20,000 nt of DNA from IMG/VR virus record IMGVR_UViG_3300001525_000359. One strand, given 5' to 3'. The notes below the pieces were generated by a model. That model was not told the origin of the DNA. It was given only the letters and a program-made list of their open reading frames with translations, and searched no databases. Shown here one piece after another: positions 230 to 18,782 of this stretch (within the stretch, counting starts at the first letter, position 1; every line of letters begins with the position of its first letter). The translations under genes were made by a program, and so were the position numbers. This DNA is from an uncultured virus (IMG/VR IMGVR_UViG_3300001525_000359) (Duplodnaviria; Heunggongvirae; Uroviricota; Caudoviricetes).

Positions 230-808
230 ATGAAGATACGTTCAGATTTCGTGAGCAACTCAAGCTCAAGCTCGTTTGTCTTGTGGAACAGCAGTGGTGA
301 TGCAAAGCTGTTTCTTGAGAAGTTTGCTGAGATGTTTGCTGGAGCATATATGCCATGGGACTTGAACAGTGCACTGTCTGTGTATGTCAACACGACGCAT
401 AGATGGTTCAATGATGTCGCAATTGCGTTGCTTGACAAAGATAAAGCAAAGAAAGCAATTGCTGAACATGACAGGTACTTGAATGACTATGCTGGAGGTG
501 TAGCTAATGTTGATTTAGATGGTGTTGCATATGACAATATTCATTTTCCGTTCAGCGACTTGGCAGACAAATATGATGAATTGCTGAGTGTAGCAGACAA
601 GATCAATTCACTTTACTTTGAAGCGCAAGATGAGTATAATTCGAATGACTTGACTGAGCTTAGAAAGATGTACTCATTCTGCAAAGATTTGGATTGCTGT
701 CCAGACTGCTCGATATCTGAACGTGACTTCTTGAGCAATGATGATGAGAACAACATTTTCTACCAGAAGATGAGAGAGTTGCATAAGTTGAAGATAGGAT
801 CAAAATGA
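230..808 (+). CDS. hypothetical protein, FVSNSSSSSF N-terminal motif family, copy 1 (192 aa)
   Basis: Starts MKIRSDFVSNSSSSSF; TGA overlaps next ATG (ATGA 805-808); no internal TAG. Confidence 0.85.
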   Translation: MKIRSDFVSNSSSSSFVLWNSSGDAKLFLEKFAEMFAGAYMPWDLNSALSVYVNTTHRWFNDVAIALLDKDKAKKAIAEHDRYLNDYAGGVANVDLDGVAYDNIHFPFSDLADKYDELLSVADKINSLYFEAQDEYNSNDLTELRKMYSFCKDLDCCPDCSISERDFLSNDDENNIFYQKMRELHKLKIGSK

Positions 809-1281
809 GAGAAGACGTGACAACTGAGATTAGTAAGACAAATGGATTCACTTGGACAGTGAAGTACTTGAATGAGTTCAATGAGCCATATTACTCAACA
901 AATGACAAAGATCTGTGCAGGCATCTTGATGTCAATGAGTGGGAGACAGGCTCAAAAGAGAAAGCATTGTCAATTGCAAGAGATCTGCTTGATGTCCCCG
1001 AAGCTGAGCTGACATTTGATGCAGTGAAGAAAGACTTTGATGGCATGGATGTCAGTGAGAAGAAGCTTGTCCAGATTCAAGACTACTATAATGGAAGATA
1101 TGCACTTTTCAACACAATGAAAAGTGACTTGTCATGCTTTGATGCTGATGCATGCAGCACTTTGCACACATTTCACTATGACATTCCAGAGAAGTACAAC
1201 ACATTCAATGTAGTGCCTGAGAATGACAATGACTGCAAACAGATAAGTGGCTACATTGAGATGACATTCAAAAGAGCGTAA
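805..1281 (+). CDS. hypothetical protein (158 aa)
   Basis: Open ORF, ATGA-coupled to the upstream gene, ends TAA. Confidence 0.8.
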   Translation: MREDVTTEISKTNGFTWTVKYLNEFNEPYYSTNDKDLCRHLDVNEWETGSKEKALSIARDLLDVPEAELTFDAVKKDFDGMDVSEKKLVQIQDYYNGRYALFNTMKSDLSCFDADACSTLHTFHYDIPEKYNTFNVVPENDNDCKQISGYIEMTFKRA

Positions 1282-1289
1282 GATGGCAA

Positions 1290-2177
1290 ATGCAGACTGA
1301 TGAAGAGAAGCTAACTTAGTTGAAGTAGTTTGAAGAAGAGCTGACTTAGCTCTGTCCAGACTTGTATTTTGACAAGCAACATCTAGCATATTGCCCAAAG
1401 TATGGCTGGATGGATGTTGTCAAGAGCATGTCATTGAAGCTTCAGATGCTAAATGTTGAGCTGAAGCAATATGGTGTGCATATCGTCATATAGCAATGCA
1501 AAGACAAGTTCGGGATGTTGAGAGTGTATGCAGATGCATTTGTGATGATGCCTGCATATGCTAAGCTGCTTATAGATACATCTGACTATGCATGCAGATA
1601 GCTTTAGCAGCATTTTGACTTCAAGATGAAGACTGTCGTTGACATGCCTTCATATGTCAAGCTTCTTGAAGAAGAGATCAGTGAAGCTGAGTTTGAGAGA
1701 TGCAGCAAATATCCAGCTTCAAACGTCAAGTTTGTGAAGAAAGATGGGAAGTTCTTCAGGTAGGGGTCATATTAGACATTTAGAGTGACACATCAAGAAG
1801 CTACTCAGCATAAGCTTGCATATGCATTGTCATCTGCATTTTCATCTCTCTCATAGAGGATTAGCAGATGGCATCAAGGGAGAAAGCATACATCTAAGCA
1901 AGAGTTTGCACTGCAATATGGTGACATGTTGTGCTCTAAGATCATAGAAGAAGCTGAAGAAGCAACTGCTATGATATGTGAGTCATGTGGCGGCGAGCTT
2001 AGTAAGTCAGGATTCAACAGACGTTGCGTTACACGCGGCTGGGTCAGGAACTTATGTCCCACATGTGCAGAGAGATCTGGTGTTGAGTTCTTTGTAGATG
2101 GTGAACTTCATAAAGGCTAGAAGTGTATCCTATCAAAAGAAGACACTTAGAAGAAGTTCGGAGAGCATCCTCAATGA
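1290..2177 (+). CDS. phage protein with KDKFGMLRVY motif and C-terminal Zn ribbon (295 aa, TAG=Gln)
   Basis: Open from ATG 1290 to TGA 2175-2177 if 11 TAG are read as Gln. QCKDKFGMLRVY plus CESCG...GWVRNLCPTC resemble the phage (Q)xKEKFGxLRxY/CxxCG family. Stop overlaps next ATG. Confidence 0.8.
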
Positions 2178-2773
2178 AAAGACGTCTAGATTTCGTCAGC
2201 AACTCAAGCTCAAGTTCATTCATAGTCATAAATGACTATGGGAAATATGTTGATGGCACAAGCATTGGTGAAATGCCAGAAGAATGCATTTAGTTGCCAT
2301 GTGACAATGGCTGCACAGAGTTCAGCTGGCAAGTAGATAAGTACTATGATGTGTTCTCTAAGCTGAATTGGGCCGCACTAGTAGTATTGTCGTAGATCAG
2401 GATCGAGAAGAATGAGACTGATGAAGACAGGCTTAAATCTGCTATAAATGCACCATGGCGTAGAGCAAAAGACATGGAGAAGATGTTGAAGAATGTTTGC
2501 AAACAACATCTTGGTGTCAATGTAAAGCTACGTAAAGCAGAATGGCGTAAAGACTATCTTTTAGTTGGCTACATTGATCATCAAAGTGACATTGTAGAGT
2601 CACCAGAAAATGCACGAATGTTCATGTCTGAGAAGATGTTAGCTGACTTCTTGTTCAATGACGCTTCTTACATAAGGAACTCAAATGACAGTAATGACAA
2701 TGATGAAGATCTTGTGTATGATGAGAAGATTGGTGACTACGTTATATTTCATCCAAGGGACTACACAAGATGA
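2174..2773 (+). CDS. hypothetical protein, FVSNSSSSSF family, copy 2 (199 aa, TAG=Gln)
   Basis: MKRRLDFVSNSSSSSFIVI...GYIDHQS...NSNDSN; 2 internal TAG; ATGA overlaps at both ends. Confidence 0.85.
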
Positions 2774-3651
2774 AGATACGTTTAGATTTTGTGAGCAACT
2801 CAAGCTCAAGCTCATTTGTAGTTGCAGTCAGTGAGAATGTCTCATTAGCAGACTTTTGCAAGACATTTGCTGATGCATGTGCAGATGATGAAACTGATGT
2901 GTAGCTTAAAGAGTAGAACATCATTAGGCTAAGATATTGTTTGTCTGAGAATGTCTTGCTTCATCTTGGCTGGCTTTTCATAAAGAAGACTGAGTCGGTT
3001 TTCGATGAAGATCATTATGCTCAAGATGGTGAGAACATTTCAGATGAAGACACTAAGTACTGGCGGTCTATGGTTGCTGAGCACAAAGATTGCATTGCAA
3101 AGTTTGCTGAAGTGAAAGACAAGCCAGAGACAGAGTAGTACAAAGAGTTTGAGATCTACAAAGATGATTATGTTGATGAAAATGGCAAAGTGCACATGAT
3201 TGAAGAGATCTGGAGTGGACGACATGCTGTCCCAAAACACTTTATGCTTAATTCATTTGTCTTCAACAGACATGAAGACTTTGTAAGCAAAGAGCTAGAA
3301 GATGACTCGAAGAGAATGCGCATTCAGCATATGCAGAAAGTCGGTGAAGTGCATTTCAAAGATGGCGATGTGATGTCTGAGCCAAAGACATATGAGATCA
3401 CTATGGACACCATCTTGAACACAAGAGAGCTTATTGATGCTGGGCTTAAGATAAAGTTCGATGATTGGGAGAAAGACATTGACAAGCTTGAGCATATGCT
3501 AGCTGAAGGGAAAAAGCTCTATGTCATTCAGCATAATCATTCTGGGTGCGGGATGCTTTCAGATGGTGTCTACTCAAGCTATGATATGGATGCTAAGACA
3601 AAGCTTGAAGATGACAAAGACATTGCCATATTGAGTTAGGAGGACTACTGA
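2770..3651 (+). CDS. hypothetical protein, FVSNSSSSSF family, copy 3 (293 aa, TAG=Gln)
   Basis: MKIRLDFVSNSSSSSFVVAV; joins track ORFs 2941 and 3190 in one frame through 4 TAG; TGA 3649-3651 overlaps next ATG. Confidence 0.85.
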
Positions 3652-3965
3652 TGAAAATTAAGCTTGAAGACTTGAGAAAATGCAGCTAGTATGATAAGTT
3701 GTTGCTGAATGAAGATATGCATTGGTAGTTTCTTGACTCATGGTTGTTTACTGACTGGCGACATACTGATAACTTTCCTGGAGAAGAATGCATTGCTGAG
3801 GGAGTTGTCTTGATTGATGCAGATGAGAGCTATGCAGCAGAGTTAGTTCTTATAAAGCATAATGACTTAAATCAGATGTCAGCAATGGTGTATTTGAAGA
3901 AAGATGCAAATGCAGTTGCTTGGGACAGCAGCGCAAACATAGTTTCAATTGAGAAAGAGAACTGA
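3651..3965 (+). CDS. hypothetical protein (104 aa, TAG=Gln)
   Basis: TGATG-coupled start with AGGAGG just upstream; 2 TAG; in frame with track ORF 3744. Confidence 0.75.
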
Positions 3966-3971
3966 AAGAAG

Positions 3972-4538
3972 ATGAAGAGCAAGAAGCCTAATAAGAAAGA
4001 TGCAAACAGCGTAAAGAAGAAAGTTGCATCTAGCAAGAAGAGCAAAAAGTCAAGCAAGTCAATTGCAAAAGACAAGCTGAAGAAACTGATAACGCCATCA
4101 AGGAAGAAGCAATTAGAAGAAGCTGCAGTTGATGAGATGCGAGATGCATTGTCAAATGACTTGAGTGTGAAATCAGAGTCAGGCAATGAGTACAGGCTTA
4201 CACCTAAAGGCATTTTGCTTGCAGTGTTAGATAAGTACTATGGTGCAGGTGAAGACTTGAAGACATTTGATGACTTCATGAAGGACTTATGCCAGCACCT
4301 GTCTATGCTAGCAACAAATGACTCGCAATATGACATGTTTGGTGATGACTTCAACTCTTTATTCGACATGCTTGTGTCGTCAATGAACTTGTCTGGAAAG
4401 ATGAAAGAGATTCTTGATGAGAATGGCATTGAGTTCAATGTTACAGAGTTTCTAGAGAACATCAACTCAGACTGCACAGACAAGTCAGCTGATGACAAAG
4501 ATGATGACAGCAATTTCATGCCAAAACGAAAGAAGTGA
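3972..4538 (+). CDS. hypothetical protein with Lys-rich N-terminus and acidic C-terminus (188 aa)
   Basis: Open ORF without TAG; MKSKKPNKK...SSKKSKKSSK basic tail. Confidence 0.8.
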   Translation: MKSKKPNKKDANSVKKKVASSKKSKKSSKSIAKDKLKKLITPSRKKQLEEAAVDEMRDALSNDLSVKSESGNEYRLTPKGILLAVLDKYYGAGEDLKTFDDFMKDLCQHLSMLATNDSQYDMFGDDFNSLFDMLVSSMNLSGKMKEILDENGIEFNVTEFLENINSDCTDKSADDKDDDSNFMPKRKK

Positions 4539-4631: not shown

Positions 4632-5162
4632 ATGGTATACGAAACAGACGATCATATAGTCAGAGACATCGGTGAGTATTCAGTGATACTTCATCAAGTG
4701 AACACAAAGGGTGTAATGCAGCAAGGCATTAGCATGGCATTGAGCAAGCAGTTTCCCAACTGGTATCCTGACTACCATGGCTACTGTGGCTGGTTTGACA
4801 AAGATGGCTCAATGAACTTTCTACATAAAGACTACACTGAAGACATCATTGGGACATGGCATCGCTATCCAGTTCCTGGACGCAATGTGATAATCTGCTC
4901 TGCATTTGGACAGCGTGGTGCAGGGAAAGAGTATGTGCAGACAGATCTTGAAGCATGGGAAAAGATCATCAAGAAGCTTGTCTTGCAGACTAGACGTGTC
5001 AACAAGATCCAGCCGGAAGGTAAGAAGTGGACAATTCATGTTCCAGCCAACTTGGGATGTCTTGGTAGAGACTATGACAACTCTGAGCTGATGGACATGC
5101 TGAATGATGCATTTGCGAAGTCAGATGATGACTTGTACATTCATGAGAGAGTGGTGTATTGA
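4632..5162 (+). CDS. macrodomain protein (Poa1p/TARG1/DarG-like ADP-ribose-processing fold)
   Basis: ILHQVNTKGVMQQGISMALSKQFP matches HQVNCxGxMGxGIA...YP; also SAFGQ and HVPANLGC. Confidence 0.75.
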   Translation: MVYETDDHIVRDIGEYSVILHQVNTKGVMQQGISMALSKQFPNWYPDYHGYCGWFDKDGSMNFLHKDYTEDIIGTWHRYPVPGRNVIICSAFGQRGAGKEYVQTDLEAWEKIIKKLVLQTRRVNKIQPEGKKWTIHVPANLGCLGRDYDNSELMDMLNDAFAKSDDDLYIHERVVY

Positions 5163-5708: not shown

Positions 5709-6353
5709 ATGAGTGGAAGCTCTTCATAGAAGCTAGCTGGTGCTTTAGGGCAATGCTTTGCAGATGCTAACATACAACGACATTTCAATGTTGACACATC
5801 ATTTCACTACTATGATGTTGTTGACAAGAATATGCATATTGACATAATGTTCAACTAGACAGCTAGTGTCAGATATGACAACGGAAATGACAGGATCATT
5901 TCTTGTAAGAACTACTTTGTTGACATAAAGACTGCATCTGAAAACTATGGCCATTCTTGCTCATTGCCAGCTGACATACATTACATGGAGTCATTTCTTG
6001 ACAAAGACTACTGGCTTGGGTTTGTGTTTCGTGATGCAGACTACATATCACTTGTTCGCATAACAACACAGTTTGTCGACACATATTTCCATATGGCACA
6101 AGGGAACACTAACGTATATGTGCAGATGGATGAGCTTGAGAGAGATGATGTCTACACTAGATGGCCAGATGACTATCTTAAAGTTCCAGTGATCGGGAGA
6201 GATGGGCCAACTACATTCAACTAGTTCTATGTAGCTTAGCACTTCACTGGACATGAGCTTGATGGAAAAAATGAAAAACAGACAAAGAAGTATGTTGAGG
6301 ATGAGCTTTTGCCATTCTGTGAGAAGCATTTTGGAAGGAACAACGACATCTAA
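5709..6353 (+). CDS. putative PD-(D/E)xK-fold nuclease-like protein (214 aa, TAG=Gln)
   Basis: ATG 5709 to TAA 6351-6353, which overlaps the rmlB ATG. DKNMHIDIMF...YFVDIKTAS resembles an ID...DxK nuclease motif. Function tentative. Confidence 0.6.
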
Positions 6354-7321
6354 TGAAAGGACATGACATGAAAAAGATTTTAGTGACAGGTGGGCTTGGC
6401 TTCATTGGCTTCAATGCATTGCAGCTATGGAAGAGAGAACATTCAGACTGCGAGTATTTTGTAGTTGATAATGAGACATATGCTGCGCAATTTATGTTGT
6501 CTGAGAAGAAAGCGTGGCTTAAAGACAACAATATAAAGCTTCTCAAATGTGACATATGTGCTGAGAAGAAAGTCGAAAAGTTTGTCATAAGCAACAATAT
6601 CGACACAATTGTCCATTTTGCAGCTGAGACGCATGTGGACAACTCGATCTCTGGGCCAGACATCTTCTTCAAGACAAATGTGCTGGGAACTGTCTCATTG
6701 TTGAACATTGCAAAGAAGCGTGATCTTCGTATTCACATCGTCTCGACTGATGAAGTGTATGGTGAGACAACACCAGATAGCTGGACTAGCATTCATCATG
6801 CAGAAGACTATGTCTTGAAGCCATCATCACCATATAGCTCATCCAAAGCAAGTGCCGACTTAGCTGCATTGTCATATCATCATACATTCGGGACAAAAGT
6901 GACGATCTCAAGATGCAGCAACAATGCTGGAAAATGGTAGCATCCAGAGAAGCTGATTGGCACAGTTATATCTAAAGCTCTTAAAGATGAAAAGATACCT
7001 GTCTATGGCAAAGGCAACTAGAAGCGGCATTGGATAGATGTCGATGATCATAACAGGGCAATATTCAACATTCTAGAATCAGGAAAGCTTGACAAGATTT
7101 ACAACATTGGCCCAATTGAAGAGAATTACATCACAAACATGCAACTCATCAAGTTCATATTGAAGCATTTAGATAAGCCGTTGTCACTTATTGAGCATGT
7201 GACAGACAGGCTTGGACATGACACAACATATTTTCTAAAGCCAGAAGAAGACATCTAGACAAGAAGTTATAAGAAGTTTATGCCAGATGTGATAGAATGG
7301 TACAAGGAGAACATTAAATGA
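6353..7321 (+). CDS. rmlB: dTDP-glucose 4,6-dehydratase (322 aa; alternative start 6368)
   Basis: ILVTGGLGFIG, HFAAETHVDNSI, STDEVYG, PSSPYSSSKA, NNAGKW[TAG]HPEKLI, GKGN[TAG]KRHW, DRLGHD; TGA overlaps the rmlA ATG. Confidence 0.95.
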
Positions 7322-8094
7322 GAAGAGGGGTTGTGTTGTGCGGAGGTTTGGGCACGAGACTCGCGCCGATAACTAAGTTTACGTTGAAGCAGTTTTGTCC
7401 AGTGTATGACAAGCCGCTTATCTACTATCCGCTTTACACCATCATGAAGATGGGCATCAAAGACATTCTCTTCATTTCGACGCCAGAAGCTACACTCGTC
7501 TTAGAGAAGAATTTAGGGACTGGCGAAGAGTATGGATGTAGCTTCAAGTACAAAGTGCAAGAGAAGCCAAATGGACTGGCACAAGCATTTGTCTTAGGCA
7601 AAGAGTTCATTGGGAAAGAGCGAGTGTGCCTGATCTTGGGTGACAACATCTTCTATGGTGCGGAATGCCAGAAGCTCTTCAAAGACGCTTGCCGGGGAAG
7701 TGAGAATGTAGTGTTTGGGTATCCAGTGTCAGATCCAGAGAGATATGGCGTAGTCGAGTTCGATGAGAATTGCAATGTCTTGTCTATCGAAGAGAAGCCT
7801 AAGAAGCCAAAGTCAAACTATGCTGTCCCAGGAATCTACTTCTACAACAATGACGTCATCCAGATTGCTGAGAGCTTGAAGCCATCGGCTAGAGGTGAGT
7901 TTGAGATAACTGACGTGAACAAAGAGTACCTGAAGCGTGGACAGCTCAAAGTCATGAAGCTTGGATTTGGCAATGCTTATCTAGACACTGGGACATTTGC
8001 AAGCTTGAATGATGCTAGCAACTTTGTCCGGACTATCGAAGACAGGACTGGACTGAAGGTGTCTGACATCGAGCAGTTCAAGAAGGTGAAGTGA
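7318..8094 (+). CDS. rmlA: glucose-1-phosphate thymidylyltransferase (258 aa)
   Basis: LCGGLGTRLAP, VYDKPLIYYPL, QEKPNGLAQAF, LGDNIF, EKP, SARGEFEITD, DTGT. Confidence 0.95.
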   Translation: MRRGVVLCGGLGTRLAPITKFTLKQFCPVYDKPLIYYPLYTIMKMGIKDILFISTPEATLVLEKNLGTGEEYGCSFKYKVQEKPNGLAQAFVLGKEFIGKERVCLILGDNIFYGAECQKLFKDACRGSENVVFGYPVSDPERYGVVEFDENCNVLSIEEKPKKPKSNYAVPGIYFYNNDVIQIAESLKPSARGEFEITDVNKEYLKRGQLKVMKLGFGNAYLDTGTFASLNDASNFVRTIEDRTGLKVSDIEQFKKVK

Positions 8095-8129: not shown

Positions 8130-10046
8130 ATGCATACTGAAAACAAATTTGAAGTGCTTACTGGGCGTCTTTAGATTCTAAAGAAGCCTACAATGTGGAT
8201 TGGTGCGATTGATCCGACAGAAAAAGAGATGTTCATCATAAATGATGACAAAGTCGAATACAAGAATGTGACATACATCCCAGCATTTCGCAAGATATTT
8301 GATGAGATCCTTGACAACAGCATTGATGCTTTGATTGAGCATTGCAACTCATGCGGTACAATTAAAGTCAAGATGGATGATGAGAAGATATCTGTTGAAG
8401 ATGATGGGCCAGGAATTCCAGTTGTGAAGAAGCAATTGAATGAGCTTGAGCTAAAGAATCTTCCAAAAGAAGAAGCTGAACAGTTGAAGAACTCATATAT
8501 TCCATTGATTGCATGGACACGAATCTTCTCTGGAACGAATTTTGTCGATGTGCAGCAGAAGACAAATATCGGTTCCCACGGAGTTGGTGCGAAAGCGTGT
8601 GCAATTTTCTCAACAAAGTTCATTGGTATAACTGATGATGGGAAAAAGAGATGTGTTGTCAAGACATTTGACAACTTGGAGAAGAGCTCATGCAAGGTAA
8701 GTGAGACATCTGGACATTCTGGAACATTAGTTGAGTTCTGGCCCGACTTAAAGAGATTTGGATTGTAGAAAGTTGAGCAAGTGTATCATGATCTTGCATA
8801 TCAGCGTCTGCTTTGTCTTGCAATGACATTCCCAAAGATGAAGTTCTCTTTCAATGGGAAGCGTATTGCTGTCAATGACAAGAAGTTTCTGAAGATGTTC
8901 AATGACAACATTGAGTATGTGACGTTTGACAAAGGCTTTGTTGGGATATATCCAAATCAGCACGATGACTTCAAGTTCTTGACATATGTTGATGGCATGT
9001 ACATGGCACGTGGTGGAAATCATGTCGACTTCATCATGAACTCAATTGTTTCACCAATTCGTGAAAAACTTAGCAAGAAATACAAAGCTATAAAGCCAGC
9101 TGACATCAAGAACAAGATGACATTAGTGTGCTTTTTACGAGAGTTCCCTAATCCAAAGTTTGACTCTTAGACAAAAGACACATTGTCAAACTCTTGGGGT
9201 GAAGTGTCAAGTTATTTGCAAGACAAGATTGATTTCAATGATTTTGCAAAGAAAATCTTGAAGAATGATGCTATAATTTCTCCAGTTGTAGAGATGTTTA
9301 AGCTAAAAGAAGAGCTTAAAGCAAGGCAAGAGCTTAAGAAAGTCAAGAAGATAAAAGTAAAGTCAGACAAGTATATGCCATCTATTGGCGAGAAGAAGTA
9401 CTGTCTACTATGCGAAGGGCTTAGTGCTCGTGGTGGCTTAAGCTCTGCACTTGGAAGAAATGGATATGCATTTTATGCAGGGCGCGGCGTCCCGCTAAAT
9501 GCATATGACGCAAACATTCAAGCAATAAGTGCAAACAAAGAACTTAAAGACATTTCATCAATTCTTGAACTTGACATATTTAGTAAATCTGATGCAAAAC
9601 AAATATCTTTTAATAAAGTCATTCTTGCAAATGATGCAGATATGGATGGTATCTTCATTGCAAATCAATATGTAGGATGGTTCACAAAGTTTGCACCAAA
9701 TCTGTTTAATGAGCATAAAGTTGCACGTCTTATAACGCCACTTGTCATTCTTAAAGACAATAAAGAAACACCAGTGAAGTATTTTTATTCATTAAATGAA
9801 TTTAAGAACTTTGAGTCAACGAATGATTTAAGAAAATACAAAATTGATTATAAGAAAGGCTTGGGATCGTGGCCAAAAGAAGAGTTCATTCAACTGTTTG
9901 ACAAGTATGGATTTGAGTATTTTGTTCAAGATCTGTTGATGGATGATGAAGGGCGTGTTTATGTTGATGACTGGCTTAATGGTAGTAATGCTGAAAAGAG
10001 AAAACAGTATCTTCGAAACTTCACATTTAATGTCGAGACAATGTAA
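8130..10046 (+). CDS. type IIA DNA topoisomerase ATPase+TOPRIM subunit (T4 gp39+gp60-like, 638 aa, TAG=Gln)
   Basis: KKPTMWIG, DEILDNSID, DDGPGIP, GSHGVGAK, FDS[TAG]TKD, CEGLSA, DADMDG, YKKGLGS; one frame through TAG at 8172, 8766 and 9168. Confidence 0.95.
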
Positions 10047-10187: not shown

Positions 10188-11453
10188 ATGAGCTATAAAG
10201 AAAGATTGCAAGAAATTGTCAAGACAAAATAGAACAATTCTTATTATAAGTAGAACAACGAGATGTTTGACAATATAGTTGATGCAATTATGTGCACAAA
10301 ATCAACTATCAGTGCAAGAAATATGATTCGTGATAATGAGTAGTTGATCGCATGGATAAATGAACAGCTTCCATAGCTTAATGAATGCAAATTAGACACA
10401 AAGGTGCATTGGATAGTTTATGATAGGCATGTCATGCCAGAATGTCATTATTGCCATCAAACATTAAAAAATGTTGACATTGCAATGTTCGATTAGTATT
10501 GTCAATGGTGTTGTCCATCACATAGAAGTCGTGATCCATTATACAAAGAACATTGTGGCGATCTTTTAGAGAAGAAGCATGGAAAAGGCATAAGATCTAT
10601 TTTTTAGATTCCTGGAGTAAGAGAAAAGGCAAAAGCAACGTGGAAAAAGAAATATGGAACAGAAAATCCATTTTCTCTTTATGAAATAAAGAACAAGAGA
10701 AAATAGACATTCATTAAGCATTATGGTGTTGACAACAACATGAAAAGCGAGAAAGGCATGCAAGAGTATAGAGATGCAATGTAGAAAAAGCATGGCGTCA
10801 ATTACACTTGGCAAATGCCTAGCGTCATACAGAAGTCACAGCAGACATCATATGAACGATATGGCGTATATGTGACATCATAGTCATAGCAAGCAAAAGA
10901 CAAGCAAGCTGAGACAAACTTCAAGAAATATGGCTGCAAGTCAGCATTGCAAAACAAAGAATGTCGCGAGAAGTCAATTCAGACAAGCTATAGCAAATAT
11001 GGCACAATGTGGCCAACACAAAGCAAAGAAGTGCAAGACAAGCATCGCATCAAATATCATTATGGTGACTAGACGTTTGACTCATCATGGGAGCTAGCGT
11101 TCTGGATCTACTGCAAAGAAAACAACATTGACATAAAGCGTGCATCTGTTGCATATGATTATGTTGATGAACGTGGTGACTAGCACAAGTACTTTCCAGA
11201 TTTTGAAGTCAATGGTGAAATCATAGAGATCAAAGGTGATGATCAGTTTGATGAGAATGGAAAGATGATAGATAAACGTGATCATAAGAAAGACTATATT
11301 GCTGAAGCTAAGCACCAATGCATGTTAAAGAACAACATCAAGATAATGAAAGGCGCAGATGTCAAAAAGTATCTTGACTATATTAATTAGAAATATGGAA
11401 GAAGCTATCTGAAGAAGTTCAAGACTATTCAAGAATAGATTGTTGCAAAATGA
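10188..11453 (+). CDS. putative free-standing homing endonuclease 1: Zn finger + 7 KYG repeats + PD-(D/E)xK domain (421 aa, 14 TAG=Gln)
   Basis: Absent from the ORF track. CHYC...WCCPSH, ~23-aa K(Y/H)G repeats, FDSSWELAFW...KYFPDF...IEIKG; TGA overlaps next ATG. Confidence 0.85.
10575..11051 (+). repeat. protein-level array of 7 ~23-aa KYG repeats
   Basis: e.g. KYGTENPFSLYEIKNKRKQTFIK / HYGVDNNMKSEKGMQEYRDAMQK / KHGVNYTWQMPSVIQKSQQTSYE / KYGCKSALQNKECREKSIQTSYS. Confidence 0.85.
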
Positions 11454-12763
11454 AGAAGCTTCGTGGACTATATGCAGTGCTAGCTAAAGCAAATTCATAT
11501 GATGAGCTTTGTGCAATTGTGCAAAGCTTTAAGACGTTGAAATGCTTTCAAGAGAAGCATATGCAATTTCTTGCAACTGAGAAGCAATTTATTAAGCATT
11601 TCATTAATGATGGCTTCACTTTGCTAGACATAAAGTATGCAATTGCTCATAGCGTATTGCCTGAACATAAGTTCTGTTCTATCTGTGGCATTGAAGTTCA
11701 TTCTACTGGACATTCATATCCAATGACGTGCGCATCTAAGCAATGTCGCTATGCATAGACATAGAAGTCGGTTGCATAGTCAAACACTAAAAAATATGGC
11801 GTTTCATGTTGCTTATCTGTTCCAGAAATACATAAGAAGGGCTAGTAGACGAGAGTTGAAATGTATGGAAATGCAAACAATTATGAAAAGTTAAAGTAGA
11901 CATTGCTTGAGCATTATAGTGTCTCATGCACATGGGACATTCTAGAAGTGAGAGAGAAGTCAAAGTAGACAATGATGCAGAACATTGGATATGAGTATGC
12001 ATTATGTTCGCCAGATGTTCATGAGAAAGCAAGAAAGACAAAACTAGAGAGATATGGTGATGAGAACTACTTTAGCAAAGAGAAATATGAGTAGACATGT
12101 GAAGAGAAATTCGGCGTAAGTCATCCAATGAAATGCGATGAAGTGAAGCAAAAGAGGAAATAGTCGTGCATTGAACATTATGGTGTTGACAGCAACATGA
12201 AGTCGCTAGACGGGCTTGCATCTTATTCTAAAAGTGTAAATGAGAAATATGGAAAAGACTTTGTTGTCTAGACGCAATATTTCAAAGAGAAGTCATAGTA
12301 GACGTGCTTAAGAAAGTATGGTGTTAGGCATCATATGTAGAACAAAGACATTTTAGACAAAGCACGAACAAAATATCATTATAATGGTTAGACATTCGAC
12401 TCTTCTTGGGAACTTGCATTCTGGATATATTGCATAGACAACAACATCAGCATTAGACATTCTTAGATGTCATTTGAATATGTAGATGAGAAGAACGTAA
12501 CTCATAAGTACTTTCCAGATTTTGAAGTGAATGAATAGTTAGTTGAGATAAAAGGCGATGACTAGTTTGATGAAACTGGGAAAATGATAGATAAGTTAGA
12601 TCATAAGAAAGACTATATTGCAGAAGCAAAACACTAGTGTATGCTAAGAAATGAAGTGAAGATCCTAAAAGGAAAAGACATTTAGAAATGTTTAGATTAT
12701 GTAGATTAGCAATATGGAAAGAACTATTTGAAGCAATTTAAGAAAAATTCAAAGAAAGTATAA
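11450..12763 (+). CDS. putative free-standing homing endonuclease 2, paralog of 10188 (437 aa, 20 TAG=Gln)
   Basis: CSICG...CASKQC, 9 KYG-type repeats, FDSSWELAFW...KYFPDF...VEIKG; ends TAA 12761-12763. Confidence 0.85.
11792..12370 (+). repeat. protein-level array of 9 KYG repeats (17-23 aa)
   Basis: e.g. KYGVSCCLSVPEIHKKGQQTRVE / KFGVSHPMKCDEVKQKRKQSCIE / HYGVDSNMKSLDGLASYSKSVNE / KYGKDFVVQTQYFKEKSQQTCLR. Confidence 0.85.
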
Positions 12764-12770
12764 TCATTTT

Positions 12771-14132
12771 ATGCAAGATAAATTAGTTAAAGATTTCTAT
12801 AAAGAAGATGTGCCATCTTTCGCTGCGGGAGACAACGTTAGAAAAATATCATCATATGTCGATGGGTTAAAGCTTTCAGCAAGAAAGCTTATCTACACAA
12901 TACTTGAAAAATATCCAAATACTAGCACTAAGACAAAGACTGCACAATTTGCGAACGTCGCCGCGGCTTTTACCAATTATAACTAGGGTGAAGGTAATCT
13001 TGCGGGCGTTGCTAACACATTGGCACAAGATTTCTGTGGAGCAAACAACTATCCATTGCTAATTGGTAGAGGCAATTTTGGCAATAGGCTTGATGACATG
13101 TGTGCAGCACCACGTTACACATTTGTTTCATCTAGCAATATCTTGAAAGCATTGTTCAATGAAGATGACTAGAAGATTGTTGGCAATTAGACATATGAAG
13201 GTGACAAGATTGAGCCATTGTTCTATGTTCCAGTTGTTTCAACATTGTTCTTGAACGGTTCAAATGGGCTTTCTACTGGATTCAGACAAGTCATTCTTCC
13301 AAGAAACATAAATGACATAATCAGCTACATCCAGAAGAAGCTTGCTGGAACTGAGCATCCAAGAATGAAGTTGCTTCCATGGTGGAGAGGCTTCAAAGGA
13401 TCATGTAGATACACTGAAGATGGTGCTCTTGAGATTCTTGGCTGCATTGAACAAGTCAACATGACTACATACAAGATCACCGAGCTTCCTGTGAATGCAG
13501 ATTACTCAAAGTACTGTGAGTTTCTTGACAAGCTTGAAGAAGATGGTGAAATACAGTCATGGAAAGACTTATGTGATCCAAAGACAAACGAGTTGTTGTT
13601 TGAAGTCAAGACGACGAGAGAGTTCACACGAAACAATGACAACTTAGAGAGCTTGCTGAAGAAGTTTCACTTGATAAAGCCATTCACCGAATAGTATAAC
13701 TGCATCGATGAAAACAATAGAGTTAGAGAGTTTAGCTCTATCTACGAGATTCTAGATGCATTCATTGACATTCGCTTGAAGTATTATGATATCCGTAAGC
13801 AGCATATCATCGACGAGCTCAAGAGCTTGATGCAGCAGCTTGTTTCGAAGTATGTCTTCATTAAAGCTGTCATTGACAAGAAGATCATCATCAGCAAGAA
13901 GAAGAAAGATGAGATCATTGCTTAGATAGAGAAGATTGACAAGATTATGAAAGTAGATGGCTCTTACAACTACTTGTTGTCAATGCAGCTGTATGCACTC
14001 ACTCATGAGAAGCTTGAAGAGTTGAAGAGCTTGATTGAGAGCAAGAAAGCTGAGCTAGCTGAAGTCAAAAACAAGACGATCCAGCAGATGTGGCTAGATG
14101 ACTTAACTGACTTGAAGAAGGTGTTGAAATGA
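12771..14132 (+). CDS. type IIA DNA topoisomerase breakage-reunion subunit (T4 gp52-like, 453 aa, TAG=Gln)
   Basis: DGLKLSARK, YN[TAG]GEGNL, GANNYPLL, GNFG, AAPRY (catalytic Tyr), NGSNGLSTGF, ITELP; one frame through 5 TAG. Confidence 0.95.
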
Positions 14133-14311
14133 TTGAAGACTATTCATACGAGTACTGGAAGATGCTGTTAGAAGATGTAGACAATGTAGTTTTTAATGAC
14201 ATCAAAACAATATCTCTAATAGAAGAGTGCGGTGAAGAATATTCATTTCCAATATCACCATCAATATTTAAGTTGTCAAATGGTGCAATTAAGGTAATGT
14301 CAATTGACTAA
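14129..14311 (+). CDS. small hypothetical protein (60 aa)
   Basis: ATGA overlap at start and TAATG overlap at end. Confidence 0.65.
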   Translation: MIEDYSYEYWKMLLEDVDNVVFNDIKTISLIEECGEEYSFPISPSIFKLSNGAIKVMSID

Positions 14312-14808
14312 TGCGCGTTCATTATTCAGAAAATCACAAATTTTGTGATCCATCTGATGTTCCATCTGGATTCTTTGTGAAGTGCTATCCAGTTCATAGA
14401 TATCCAGATGGATTCTTTAATCGTCTTGAAGATAATGAGCATTATGAATAGATAGATCATAGCAAATACATAGATCATTGGGGAATTGACTACGACTTAG
14501 ATAACACTACGATTAATGGACTAAGTCGTTATGTAGATTTCTCTTCATTTGAAGAAGCTGCATTAAGATGTGCAATTCTTGGATTAGAGTGCAAAAGATG
14601 CAAATGGTTTAATTATCCTGCATGGAAAAATAAAGATGGAAACTGGATAGTACGTTATCCATTCAGTCCGTCTTTTTGTGGTGAGTATGTTCCTGAAGAG
14701 AAGTATAATGAGCTTTGTGACAAGATAATGCATAAGATGCTGAAAGATGACTACAGTGAGTACATTGAGAAATTCGGAGACATGCTCTCATACAAGCTGC
14801 CAGAATGA
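14311..14808 (+). CDS. hypothetical protein, Cys/Trp-containing paralog family, copy 1 (165 aa)
   Basis: MRVHYSENHKFCDPSDVPSGFFVKCY...YDL...GL..RCKW...VPEEKYNELCDKIMHKMLKDDY; 1 TAG. Confidence 0.8.
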
Positions 14809-14974: not shown

Positions 14975-15793
14975 ATGAAAGTAGATAAGCACAATAAAAA
15001 GACATATACAAAATAGCAAATGTTCAAAGCGTTTAAATATTGGACAAATGCGTTAGCTGAATCAGCTAGACTCGATGAAAGCACTAGTGTGTTACTTGAT
15101 AAGTTAGCAGATGACTTAGGATCAAACAACATATTTAATATGACAAGAAAAGTTATTCTTACTGATACTGACATTAAGAAAATATTTAATTCACTGAACA
15201 AACATGTGTTTTCATCAAAGTTAAAGCCAATTCCAATATATTACTATTCATATTAGAAAATTCTTGATGTAATGAGAAGTAGAGGTGCTCCTGAAGATGG
15301 CTTACCTAATGATGAAGTACTTGGTGTGCATTCGTGTTTATGTAATAAAGATACTAATGAAATCAATGAAGATACAATAGTGTCATTTGATAATAACATT
15401 ATTATGATAAACAAAGACATTATGCATAATAGAACATTTATTTTCAATGTTACAACAATTTGTCATGAAATGATACATTATTATGACACACATTATGGAG
15501 ACTATGCAGATTTATATAAAATGTGTGTTATTAATGGTTTGTGGTTTTCTGGACATAACACAAAAACGTTTGAATATTTCATAAATTTGCTATATTCATA
15601 TGATCTGCGTGTACTTCCATTTAAGTATTCAAAAAGCGATGATTAGCTTGAACATGATACTGTAACTCAAATGGCATCAACAATATATGATGAATAGGTT
15701 AGTGAATCTGAAGATCATACACATAAAACTGATACGATTGTGTCTAATATAAGAAATGGAAGAACAACAATATTTGAAGTAGATTATGACTAA
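14975..15793 (+). CDS. SprT-like HExxH zinc metalloprotease (272 aa, TAG=Gln)
   Basis: TICHEMIHYY and downstream SGHNTKTF (third His ligand, SprT-like); joins track ORFs 15020 and 15272 through 4 TAG. Confidence 0.8.
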
Positions 15794-16262
15794 GCTTCCA
15801 TCAGATTTTGTTGTTAAATATGGCATAATACAGGAATGTCGATGGATAGGCTTTAATAACATTGATAAGTCAAATATAAGTTATTGCAAAGTTTAGTATG
15901 ACTTAAATGAAGATATACCGGGTTTAGAACGATACCGGTATTTTAGGACAGTTGACGAAGTTATTTCAATATGTGAAAGACTTGGATTAACACATAAGAA
16001 ATGTAAGTTTTTTAGAGATATGCCATGTAAGTGTGAAGATGGCCATTGGGGTACACATATAGTAGAGGCTACTAACTATGATGGCGTGCTTATTCCAGAA
16101 GATAACTATGATGAGTTATGCGATAAAATTCTGCAAAAGACACTTGGCAAAGACTATGACTCATACATGATGCGTCATATGTCAATGTTTGAGAAAATCA
16201 ACTACAAACTGCATAAGTGGCTGAAAACATTTAAGTTATTGTTCTCAAAATATAAAGCATAA
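15786..16262 (+). CDS. hypothetical protein, paralog family copy 2 (158 aa)
   Basis: MTKLPSDFVVKY...YDL...GLERY...CERLGL..KCKF...IPEDNYDELCDKILQKTLGKDY; 1 TAG; TAATG overlap at end. Confidence 0.8.
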
Positions 16263-17653
16263 TGCGCATATCTCATCCATCTTAGTTCATATTTTGCAAA
16301 GCATCTGATGTTCCAGACAACTTCTTTGTGAAATGCTATTCATTGTATGACTATCATGAGCTTATACTTAATGCTAAAGATAAAGACATCTTGCCAGACT
16401 GCTGGGAAGTCGACTATGACTTAAAGAATACATCTGTTGTCGGCTTATATAGGTTCACACGATTTAAGACATTTGAAGAAGCATAGCAGAAATGCTCTGA
16501 GCTTGGCTTAAAGGTTCGCAAATGCAGATGGCTGCAATATCCGCCTAAGCGAGATGCATCTGGAAACTGGACATATGCTTCATATGATGTGCCATACAAG
16601 TTTGGAAAGTTTATCCCTGAAGATGAGTTTGAGAAACAAAGAGAATGCATATGGCATAAGATGCTGAAAGATGACTATGATGACTGCATAAGAGAGATGA
16701 CAAGAAAAGAGCTAAAAGAGAAGTTAAAGAATGCAAAGTTCTTTGCTGAAGGCTTTAAGCATGACTGCACGTTGAGAGTTGCTGATCTTGAGCGAGATGC
16801 TATCAATGAAGGCATAGATGTAGAGTTCAAGTTCGGAAAGAATTTCATATCATTGAATGACACTCATGAGAAGGGTGTAGACACATCATTGAAGGCTAAT
16901 CCCACATCTGCAAAACTCATTGTTGATGAAGCAAATTTTGATGTCAGGACATTCGATGTCTACTCGATCTTCAAGCGAGTTTCAGGTAATCCTGGTGACG
17001 GAAACTCTCTCATATTCGCTTTGAAAGGAGAGAGAAACTTCATGTTCAAGCATGGTGAGCAACAGAAGTTCAGGAACAGAGCAAAGCAGATCATTGCAAA
17101 GTTTCTTGAAGACTATTTAAAGAAAACTGGGAGAAATGCTGTCTCGACAATTGTTTTGCCATCTGGAAAGTCAGTCAACTCGAATTTCGCAAAGCTTGTC
17201 AAAGAAGTGGCTGCATCTAAACTTAATTGCAAGATGAACTTGTATGATGATGTCTTTGTGAAGCTGCCAGTCGATTTCATCAGGAACAATGTGCAATATG
17301 ATGCTGGCTCACAATATAACAGATGGTTGCATTCACTTGCTGAAGATCGCATTAGCTAGATAAGTGCGTTGTTTGATTATGACTTGACACAAATGGAGAA
17401 ACTAAGAAATGGATATTTCACATATCATATGGTGTCTGATGCAAATGTCAGGAACATGATTAGCTCTTCATTGTCTGTCAATGCAAATGAAGACTATGCT
17501 GGCATGTTTAGCCCGATTAACGACAAGCATGTCTTGATGTTAGATGACATGATGTCTAGAGGTGCAACGATCAAAGATGCTATCAGGAACTTATGTTGCA
17601 GTTATCATCCCAAAAGCATAACTGTCTTGACGCTTCTTTCACAGAAATATTGA
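16262..17653 (+). CDS. paralog-family domain (copy 3) fused to a type I phosphoribosyltransferase domain (463 aa, TAG=Gln)
   Basis: N-terminal SDVPDNFFVKCY...HKMLKDDY; C-terminal HVLMLDDMMSRGATIKDA PRPP-binding motif; 3 TAG; internal Met 16697 may be a second start. Confidence 0.8.
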
Positions 17654-17681: not shown

Positions 17682-18782
17682 ATGAGCAATTTAATGGACT
17701 ATATTTCAAAAGAGATCAATGATATCTCACATCTTCAGTATGTATTTGGACAAGGTGAGGCATAGCAAGCACAGAAGAAGAACGTCCTGATAGTAGGATG
17801 CAGAGGCATGCTTGGTGCTTATGTGCTTGAGCAGTTCAGTAAAGATGCAATGAGAAAAGACTCGATCTTCAACATTGTTGCTGGCGTTGATTTGCCTGAA
17901 GTTGATATCAGGAGCTATGCTAGCATTGAGAAGTACTTGAAAGATGCACTTGATTTTGATGTGATAGTGAATTGTGCAGCATATACAGACACAAATGAAT
18001 GCGAAGACAATAAGCATAAGAGCATTGCATATGCAGTGAATGCAGTTGGCACAAAGAATCTTGCGAGAGTTTGCTCAGAGCATTGCATCAAGCTCATTCA
18101 CATCTCTACAGACTATGTCTTTTCGGAGCATAGCTATGACTTTGATGCAGATGAAGCAATAGAGTTTCCAGTCAATGAATATGGCATGCAGAAGCTTATG
18201 GGAGAGAAGTTCATTGATGAAGAGCTTGCTGAGACGCAATATGCAATTCTCAGGACATCTTGGCTTTACTGGCAATGCAGCAAGCCAACATTCATTCATA
18301 AGTTCTTGCTAAACTGCAAGAAAGTGACTGGACAGAATAATGCCGTCGTGAAAGCTACATCAGACAATTTTGGCAAGCCGACATCAGTTGCATCTGCATG
18401 TGAATTCATTCGAGAAGTCATCAAAGAAGATGCATGTGGCATAATGGATATGCAGTACTTAGGTGCACCTATGTCAAGACAAGAGTTTGCTGCACATGTC
18501 CTGAATGCTTGGAAGAATGCAGCTGGCACAATGATGGATGTCAAAGTAGAGGGTGTCATGTCAGATGACTTGCCAAGCAAGATCTAGCATCCAAAAATGA
18601 TCAAGAATGTAGAAGGCATGCCATATGAGACAACACCAACTATGCTAGAGAACGATGCTTACATTAAGCTTGCTAGCAAATGCAAAGGCATGAAAGATGT
18701 TCATGATGCAGTTGCTTAGATTCACAAGTTCATCAAGACATACCATTTAGACATTTAGAAATGGCTAGATAAGCAGAAATAA
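17682..18782 (+). CDS. rmlD: dTDP-4-dehydrorhamnose reductase (366 aa, TAG=Gln)
   Basis: NVLIVGCRGMLG, VNCAAYT, VNAVG, HISTDYVF, NEYGMQK (YxxxK), ILRTSWLY, GKPT; 4 TAG; ends TAA. Confidence 0.9.

Follow-up and report, generated by a model that had tools for sequence, protein, structure and literature searches.

A stretch of 20,000 nucleotides from an uncultured virus of the Caudoviricetes (IMG/VR record IMGVR_UViG_3300001525_000359; the whole stretch is called the window in the following) carries three genes, starting at positions 230, 2174 and 2770 and encoding the proteins P0001, P0002 and P0003, that open with the same N-terminal tag, MK(I/R)RxDFVSNSSSSSF. Tagged genes occur on a large scale beyond this window, they are tightly linked to and co-occur with genes of one enzyme family, and in a structural model the interface with this enzyme is confined to the tag. 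We consider it likely that a dedicated radical S-adenosylmethionine (SAM)/SPASM maturase, encoded in the same genome, recognises these 16 N-terminal residues and uses them as its substrate.

A common start on three otherwise dissimilar genes had been noticed in a sequence-only reading of this DNA, and a pattern search as well as a six-frame peptide scan confirm it. The DNA pattern given in that reading is present at exactly three sites of the window (245-277, 2189-2221 and 2785-2817), all on the plus strand and with 0 mismatches; none is expected by chance, and 0 of 200 shuffles contain a match. The peptide N-S-S-S-S-S-F is encoded in the window solely at the three tag gene starts. The same reading had seen no similarity behind the tag. 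BLAST among the tag-stripped bodies finds no match between P0001, P0002 and P0003, and a tag-stripped profile comparison connects neither the P0001 nor the P0002 cluster with any other (best probabilities ~1% or less), and therefore this observation holds at the level of both sequences and profiles. The body of P0001 forms a singleton cluster by BLAST, its sole detected relative being one viral tag protein with a weak match of 35% over 54 aa (L003_+6502; L numbers denote loci throughout). P0002 is a member of a body family characterised by 'YIDHQS / PENARMF / SYIxxxNDN', and P0003 falls into the largest body family, which has 61 members among the tag proteins gathered and features a C-terminal strand plus an 'xGDG'-type loop.

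A profile of the tag, 40 residues long and built from 32 tag N-termini, was searched against 1.84 billion representatives, as a motif search across databases had been suggested from the sequence alone. It retrieved 22,628 protein clusters (50% identity) at E<=0.001, a count that rests on the E-values of a short serine-rich profile and of which the best 150 were inspected. In 142 of these best 150 of 22,628 the match begins at residue 1, and the remainder are two-tag proteins or carry a short N-terminal extension. Among the two-tag proteins (P0143, P0144, P0157 and others), P0144 and P0157 are true tandem-domain proteins and others resemble fused neighbouring open reading frames (ORFs). A word-indexed search with the tag scored 7,999 candidates, of which 1,190 proteins had E<=1. 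Residues M1, D6, F7, N10 and S11-S13 are invariant in 32 tag proteins, and M1, K2, R4, D6, V8, N10, S11-S15 and F16 in 36 cognate partners of the enzyme described below; the three tags of the window fit. IMG/VR loci found via the tag contain 3-7 adjacent genes with the same start and different continuations.

Existing libraries hold next to nothing on these proteins. Pfam, NCBIfam and PADLOC gave nothing above cutoff for P0001, P0002 and P0003, and Pfam found no family at its curated cutoff in 103 of the best tag proteins. In the PDB the tag profile had 0 matches, neither the sequences of P0002 and P0003 nor the profile of the P0003 family retrieved anything meaningful there, and the ESM Atlas offered for P0001 unnamed viral clusters only, at 0.87 and thus under the lead level of 0.9. 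The only library family with the tag is phrog_7397 (PHROGs), which lacks an annotation and represents the '...SHH' bodies found in T4-like phages of Klebsiella, Enterobacter and Cronobacter. The window proteins match this family with the tag only (E 7e-4 to 0.03; residues 1-19, 1-38 and 1-97); we rejected them as members, since they cover profile positions 1-19, 1-37 and 1-90 of 170, whereas the true members P0026 and P0235 match positions 1-170. A literature search, with subscription-only papers outside its reach, found no paper with the motif or with the pairing of tag and enzyme.

Linkage of the tag to a radical SAM/SPASM enzyme

A scan for the tag in one genome per prokaryotic species yielded more than 627 pattern matches, 464 of which were confirmed and 78 kept as loci with 1-10 tag genes each. 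These cellular loci are mostly from Firmicutes and also from Bacteroidota, Cyanobacteria, Myxococcota, Kaiserbacteria, Promethearchaeota and ANME archaea. In 12 of 14 annotated neighbourhoods a protein of 340-430 residues with a Radical_SAM and/or SPASM domain (Pfam) is encoded directly beside a tag gene, and a 13th (L066) has an ORF of the same size in this place which has no Pfam match and scores 593 bits with a hidden Markov model (HMM) of the enzyme. In L017, from the metagenome-assembled genome (MAG) of an Asgard archaeon (Promethearchaeota) that has both tag and enzyme, no enzyme neighbour is found within the locus and one copy lies elsewhere in the genome.

The enzyme HMM, built from 11 tag-adjacent enzymes, has matches of 440-600 bits no more than 1.5 kb away from a tag gene in 71 of the 78 cellular loci; of the 47 loci that extend 1.5 kb or more to either side, 44 have the enzyme this near to the tag. 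The gap between enzyme and tag gene is mostly 0-25 bp. All three of the roomy loci that lack an adjacent enzyme have exactly one copy elsewhere in the same genome. Co-occurrence was also assessed in an unbiased sample of 121 genomes of one family, drawn evenly, of which five encode the enzyme, three the tag, three both (adjacent to each other) and none the tag only. The two enzyme-only copies carry in-frame stops.

Viruses show the same arrangement. When 80 IMG/VR loci were centred on the enzyme, many of them near-duplicates, 73 were found to hold 1-8 tag genes, all downstream and on the same strand, and four of the seven without tag genes end less than 500 bp after the enzyme. The inspection of neighbourhoods for radical SAM genes, proposed in the sequence-only reading, thus turned out to be the decisive one in cellular and viral loci alike. 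Searches of whole records located the enzyme in the complete 321-kb phage of L007, which has 12 tag genes, and in the contigs of L003 (6 tag genes), L004 (5) and L008. Of 50,697 records of cultured phages, 172 contain a tag protein and 168 the enzyme, and the two are spread over the genera of T4-like phages of enterobacteria in almost the same numbers. Phage Matisse has two tag genes together with an enzyme annotated 'radical SAM protein ... SPASM'; the tag genes of this phage are surrounded by small genes of the early type and are encoded on the other strand than the baseplate genes. Vibrio phage D479, which was found by the enzyme alone, has 5 tag genes, and the coliphages RB43, RB16 and Lw1 encode the enzyme plus at least one tagged gene.

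The surroundings in cellular genomes are those of variable islands, with genes for restriction-modification, a Schlafen-type helicase, an AbiEii-type ATPase, PARG, Fic, HicB and integrase. Among 91 loci searched, 7 encode an Avs2-like STAND NTPase, namely 6 of the cellular loci (n=78) and the provirus L008. We considered Avs2 (AVAST type 2) as an accessory module and dismissed it, as the scores are far under the NCBIfam cutoff and none is encoded in the window. Some cellular cassettes form part of larger operons (L052 3464-9454; L028 2946-9460; L081 1394-7341; L078 5001-13336), in the order Avs2-like STAND NTPase (sometimes together with a protease, lipase or HNH protein), a protein of 142-148 aa, tag protein and SPASM enzyme. 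Tandem arrays of tag genes were also seen on MAG contigs, with 7 in L014 2123-4883 (Kaiserbacteria) and 10 in L016 7547-12305 (Gastranaerophilales); these two contigs, although binned to cellular MAGs, may be phage contigs.

Compared with NCBIfam, the enzyme is closest to maturases of the GeoRSP, mycofactocin, WgkB and NirJ2 types, with at most 65 bits and far under every curated cutoff, and PADLOC reveals only a remote similarity to viperin. Eight cysteines are conserved in the C-terminal part. Its own N-terminus (MK-x-R-K-E-x-D-F-hydrophobic-S) resembles the start of the tag, as for example in the enzymes of L060 (8357-9451) and L123 (9968-11035).

Modelled binding, variable bodies and the readings of the tag

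A complex was modelled for a cognate pair from Butyrivibrio, comprising the enzyme (11-row alignment), SAM, three 4Fe-4S clusters and the tag protein (36-row alignment). Its interface score (ipSAE) is 0.61 (0.61, 0.67 and 0.50 in the individual runs), whereas the best of three controls reached 0.02; in the calibration, 116 of 157 solved complexes and 2 of 215 mismatched pairs attain this mark. At least 55% of the contacts agree between runs, the partner having a predicted local distance difference test (pLDDT) score of 51-56. The confident interface of the partner consists of residues 1-18 only, placed in the barrel of the enzyme: tag residues 1-7 run along enzyme residues 20-27, and the remainder contacts the ends of the barrel strands and the SPASM region. 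At the level of a model, this supports binding of the tag by the enzyme.

In the mechanism that we propose, tag residues 1-7 (MK-I/V-R-x-D/G-F) would join the N-terminal strand of the enzyme as an added strand, and residues 10-15, with the invariant Asn-Ser-Ser-Ser, would thereby be threaded into the radical SAM barrel and come to lie next to the SPASM clusters, where a serine would be modified through hydrogen-atom abstraction. Residues 14-20 would afterwards form the first strand of the variable body. One enzyme might in this manner serve many substrates, with 1-12 tagged genes per genome and hypervariable bodies. The modification of the tag, the modified residue, the product and the biological role are what we infer here; serine-directed hydrogen abstraction is a natural guess for the chemistry, and possible products, which we do not rank, are a formylglycine-type aldehyde, a serine-derived cross-link or a D-residue.

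The bodies behind the tag are highly diverse. The 255 distinct tag proteins fall into 46 body clusters, only few of which are linked by the tag-stripped profile comparison (at 90%, 67% and 57% probability), and many subfamilies have their own conserved C-terminal endings. These links and the conserved C-termini indicate that part of the tag set probably shares a small core. The model of P0002 (from 17 sequences; pLDDT 80.1, predicted TM-score (pTM) 0.80) has residues 1-13 below 50 and a strand at 15-18, and that of P0003 (from 58 sequences; pLDDT 88.7, pTM 0.84) has residues 1-10 averaging 50 and its strand 1 at 14-20. In both, the later half of the tag makes up the body's first strand and the residues ahead of it are left unplaced, as would fit a free substrate arm. 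With Foldseek, P0002 had 0 matches at E<=0.001 and P0003 likewise none. The wide search with VIA reached at best Z 3.0 for P0002 and Z 5.1 for P0003, the latter over 68 residues and to beta-alpha-beta sandwiches of a generic, ACT/S6/ClpS-like kind via strand 1 and the C-terminal strands. The absence of a specific fold match for P0002 and P0003 is no proof of new folds. A single known fold in which the motif is an ordinary first strand with saturated synonymous sites, the picture that the sequence-only reading had set against its own proposals, is not what we found. Likenesses to PP-loop, MIDAS/VWA, HAD, GDSL, prepilin leader and amyloid-signalling motifs were considered within the library and fold searches above and dropped, as no motif fits.

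Several points weigh against a dedicated maturase that modifies the tag. The first cysteine motif of the enzyme is Cx7Cx6C in 111 of 136 distinct sequences and the canonical Cx3Cx2C in 8 (other variants being CxCx3Cx3C and Cx7Cx2C), and seven Lachnospiraceae-type enzymes match SPASM and not Radical_SAM in Pfam; radical chemistry is therefore not assured. The custom alignments and riding ligands of the complex model fall outside the calibration of its score, which may moreover owe something to solved structures of radical SAM enzymes with peptides that the model had learnt. In P0144 and P0157 the second copy of the tag is internal and has no Met, hence a free N-terminus is not strictly needed. 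As for the linkage, the near-duplicates among the IMG/VR loci mean that 73 of 80 overstates the number of independent cases, and four viral contigs with tag arrays, which are fragments estimated to be 7-43% complete, have no match to the enzyme. Finally, the enzyme HMM detects no enzyme gene in the 20 kb of the window, so that the enzyme link of its three genes rests on the shared tag; we predict that the enzyme of the window phage is encoded outside these 20 kb.

The linkage would also be accounted for if the tag proteins were partners or adaptors of the enzyme instead of its substrates, with the tag docking onto or plugging the enzyme and the body bringing in a target (DNA, a nucleotide or a protein of phage or host) or acting as a regulator. 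The same linkage data apply here, one enzyme goes with many different bodies, and binding-type domains were found more than 170 residues behind the tag in long tag proteins (n=30; LRR_5 in 10, BRCT in 2, HIRAN in 1). We nevertheless hold this to be unlikely, because the modelled tag sits inside the catalytic barrel near residues of the SAM site, as a substrate would, and because the invariant Asn-Ser-Ser-Ser is more conserved than a docking strand needs. More improbable still, in our judgement, is that the motif represents the first strand or an active-site loop of one ancient, hyperdivergent domain family with which the enzyme cooperates in some other way. Strand 1 of the core sheet at residues 14-20, the profile links between some body families, the conserved C-termini of subfamilies and the internal motif of P0144 and P0157 would agree with such a family, but the models leave residues 1-13 unplaced, no link joins the bodies of P0001 and P0002 to the others, no known fold emerged for the two models, and 16 contiguous, near-invariant residues in proteins that otherwise cannot be aligned are unlike the conservation of a fold.

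Three further explanations appear very improbable to us. Internal proteins of phage T4 are dissimilar, polymorphic and clustered and have in common a short N-terminal capsid-targeting peptide; in T4-type capsid-targeting proteins a site for the prohead protease follows the tag. A short common N-terminus on otherwise dissimilar, tandemly encoded phage proteins is shared by the system studied here, and would fit a targeting sequence for the capsid or another compartment, comparable to that of the T4 internal proteins or to the cargo peptide of encapsulins. The tag, however, is not linked to head genes, scaffold or prohead protease, it is equally common in cellular cassettes without virion genes, its conserved partner is a radical SAM/SPASM enzyme and not a scaffold or protease, and it is near-identical in such unrelated phages as a T4-like phage, a 321-kb phage and the TAG-recoded phage of the window. 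Membership in the T4 type was rejected on the grounds that a late or virion context is seen neither in Matisse, with its early-type region, nor in the cellular cassettes. The sequence-only reading had proposed a leader recognised either by a modifying enzyme or by packaging machinery: radical SAM linkage, co-occurrence and the complex model argue for the former, and the early-type position of the Matisse tag genes, on the strand opposite the baseplate genes, lends no support to the latter.

Its second proposal, autoprocessing at the tag without a helper to give an N-terminal Ser nucleophile or pyruvoyl group, has the serine run near the N-terminus as the sole point in its favour; it has become most doubtful, given that no likeness to an N-terminal nucleophile or pyruvoyl fold, or to any other known autoprocessing fold, was found in the fold searches with P0002 and P0003 and that strict co-occurrence with an enzyme is needless for self-processing. 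An N-terminal Ser or pyruvoyl group could still result from enzymatic modification. The third, a DNA homology handle for the recombinational shuffling of cassettes, has partial support as a secondary effect and hardly a chance of being the primary role of the tag. In the three copies of the window 28 of 41 comparisons of synonymous codons are identical, against 14.6 +/- 3.1 expected from the codon usage of the window (P ~1.5e-4), and the synonymous identity of tags within a locus ranges from 0.33 to 0.92, with several loci at 0.7-0.9, compared with 0.46 between genomes. This elevated identity within genomes likely reflects gene conversion or recombination at the tag as a side effect. Across genomes, by contrast, the serines of the invariant peptide are encoded now by TCN and now by AGY codons, from which it follows that selection acts on the peptide, and some genomes are at or below the between-genome baseline (L014 0.34, L004 0.42). 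Codon switching and low-identity genomes together make the DNA handle only a by-product of constraint at the protein level.

Gene array and TAG codons of the window

The standard-code ORFs of the tag region are broken up by in-frame TAG. If TAG is read as Gln, a compact gene array results, all on the plus strand (Table 1), which encodes two type II topoisomerase subunits, enzymes resembling RmlA, RmlB and RmlD, and a pair of DUF7487 proteins. The gene models of P0002 and P0003 require TAG as a sense codon, and 5 of the 6 TAG positions in the tag genes align with Gln in the closest database homologues, homology extending beyond them. The phage reads TAG as a sense codon, most likely for Gln. 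A tRNA scan of the 20-kb window found none, hence no suppressor tRNA is seen in it. In-frame TAGs are distributed very unevenly, with 20 in the DUF7487 gene at 11450..12763, 14 in the one at 10188..11453 and 11 in the untagged gene amid the tag array, as opposed to zero in 230..808, 805..1281, 3972..4538, 4632..5162 and 7318..8094.

Table 1. Positions of the tag genes, the tag copies and the untagged gene within the tag array of the window
Feature	Position	Strand	Description
Tag gene 1 (P0001)	230..808	+	192 aa, no in-frame TAG; acidic body
Tag copy 1	230..277	+	16 codons, MKIRSDFVSNSSSSSF
Untagged gene amid tag array	1290..2177	+	295 aa, 11 in-frame TAG
Tag gene 2 (P0002)	2174..2773	+	199 aa, TAG at codons 40 and 74
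Tag copy 2	2174..2221	+	MKRRLDFVSNSSSSSF
Tag gene 3 (P0003)	2770..3651	+	293 aa, TAG at codons 45, 49, 123 and 290
Tag copy 3	2770..2817	+	MKIRLDFVSNSSSSSF

The start of tag gene 3 overlaps the stop of tag gene 2. Alone among the non-tag neighbours, the untagged gene has a homologue next to the tag genes of a different viral locus (L002 +856, 318 aa); apart from this match no conserved non-tag neighbour was found across the viral loci, and it is uncertain whether the gene is part of the tag system. Directly after tag gene 3, the gene at 3651..3965 starts with MKIKLEDL..., similar to the first residues of the tag and without the Asn-Ser run; it may be a decayed member of the tag family.

Two DUF7487 paralogues (421 and 437 aa; 10188-12763) lie between the genes for the topoisomerase II subunits (8130..10046 and 12771..14132), and their C-terminal part appears PD-(D/E)xK-like by eye; the pair looks like mobile endonuclease insertions. 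A search of IMG/VR with the topoisomerase gene revealed relatives of the window at just 31% identity as the closest. A second set of paralogues is formed by the genes at 14311-14808, 15756-16262 and 16262-17653, which share an N-terminal domain of ~150 residues belonging to no known family, the last of them extending into a region with a phosphoribosyltransferase-like motif. Genes of a dTDP-sugar pathway that are RmlB-, RmlA- and RmlD-like (6353-8094 and 17682-18782; Pfam E 7e-53, 1e-62 and 2e-45) may serve a route of DNA or protein glycosylation. The 176-aa protein encoded at 4632-5162 matches phrog_335 'phosphatase' (E 3.8e-9) and has no Pfam match.

Comparable known systems and the possible meaning of the tag

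Among enzymes of known function, the anaerobic sulfatase maturases AtsB/anSME combine a radical SAM with a SPASM domain, have no separate recognition domain and act on a Ser or Cys in a short motif near the N-terminus of the sulfatase, (C/S)-x-P-x-R. The system described here likewise links a SPASM enzyme to full-size proteins with an invariant serine motif at the N-terminus. It differs in that the tag does not contain (C/S)-x-P-x-R, has no Pro and has Arg only before the serines, and in that the substrates are not sulfatases, are hypervariable and occur in arrays. Most of the linked enzymes, too, have Cx7Cx6C and not Cx3Cx2C. A pair of anaerobic sulfatase maturase and sulfatase was ruled out, the linked enzyme scoring 18.5 bits against the cutoff of 349 of TIGR03942 and the sulfatase motif being absent from the tag.

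Similar in organisation are the radical SAM/SPASM maturases of ribosomally synthesised and post-translationally modified peptides, where one maturase gene is also followed by several substrate genes with a common recognition sequence, and where this sequence pairs as an extra strand with one of the enzyme's strands, as it does in our model. Protein-size substrates are possible in this chemistry: CrpC is a SPASM enzyme that crosslinks the whole protein CrpA (PMC13692751). This pair is the nearest precedent found in our literature search. In contrast to these systems, the conserved part of the tag proteins is at the extreme N-terminus and seems to be handle and target at once, the variable part is a folded body of 80-700 residues, and the tag requires no Cys. 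The low NCBIfam scores of the enzyme, as well as its occurrence in phages and variable islands, also set it apart.

The placement of the cassettes in accessory regions of the early type in phages and in variable islands rich in restriction, Abi, toxin and Avs2-like STAND genes, together with the LRR, BRCT and HIRAN domains on some bodies, points to a role in phage-host conflict. It is tempting to speculate, though we regard this part as tentative and rather doubtful, that phages and the variable islands of bacteria and archaea have in common a very large, so far uncatalogued class of proteins matured by an enzyme. In this scenario one unusual radical SAM/SPASM enzyme, mostly with Cx7Cx6C, would turn a serine of the Asn-Ser-Ser-Ser run into a reactive or cross-linked group such as a formylglycine-type aldehyde and thereby arm arrays of hypervariable binders as effectors or decoys, the three genes of the window being one such repertoire of a TAG-recoded phage.

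If the tag is the substrate sequence of this enzyme, one short tag would explain tens of thousands of 'hypothetical' proteins of phages and islands and would link them all to one enzyme family, which has no name in any library. Radical SAM/SPASM chemistry would gain a class of substrates of protein size, possibly with a new cluster motif, and phages and bacterial variable islands would have in common a module of one enzyme plus its repertoire. For annotation, the N-terminal tag together with a SPASM enzyme would serve as the marker of such cassettes.

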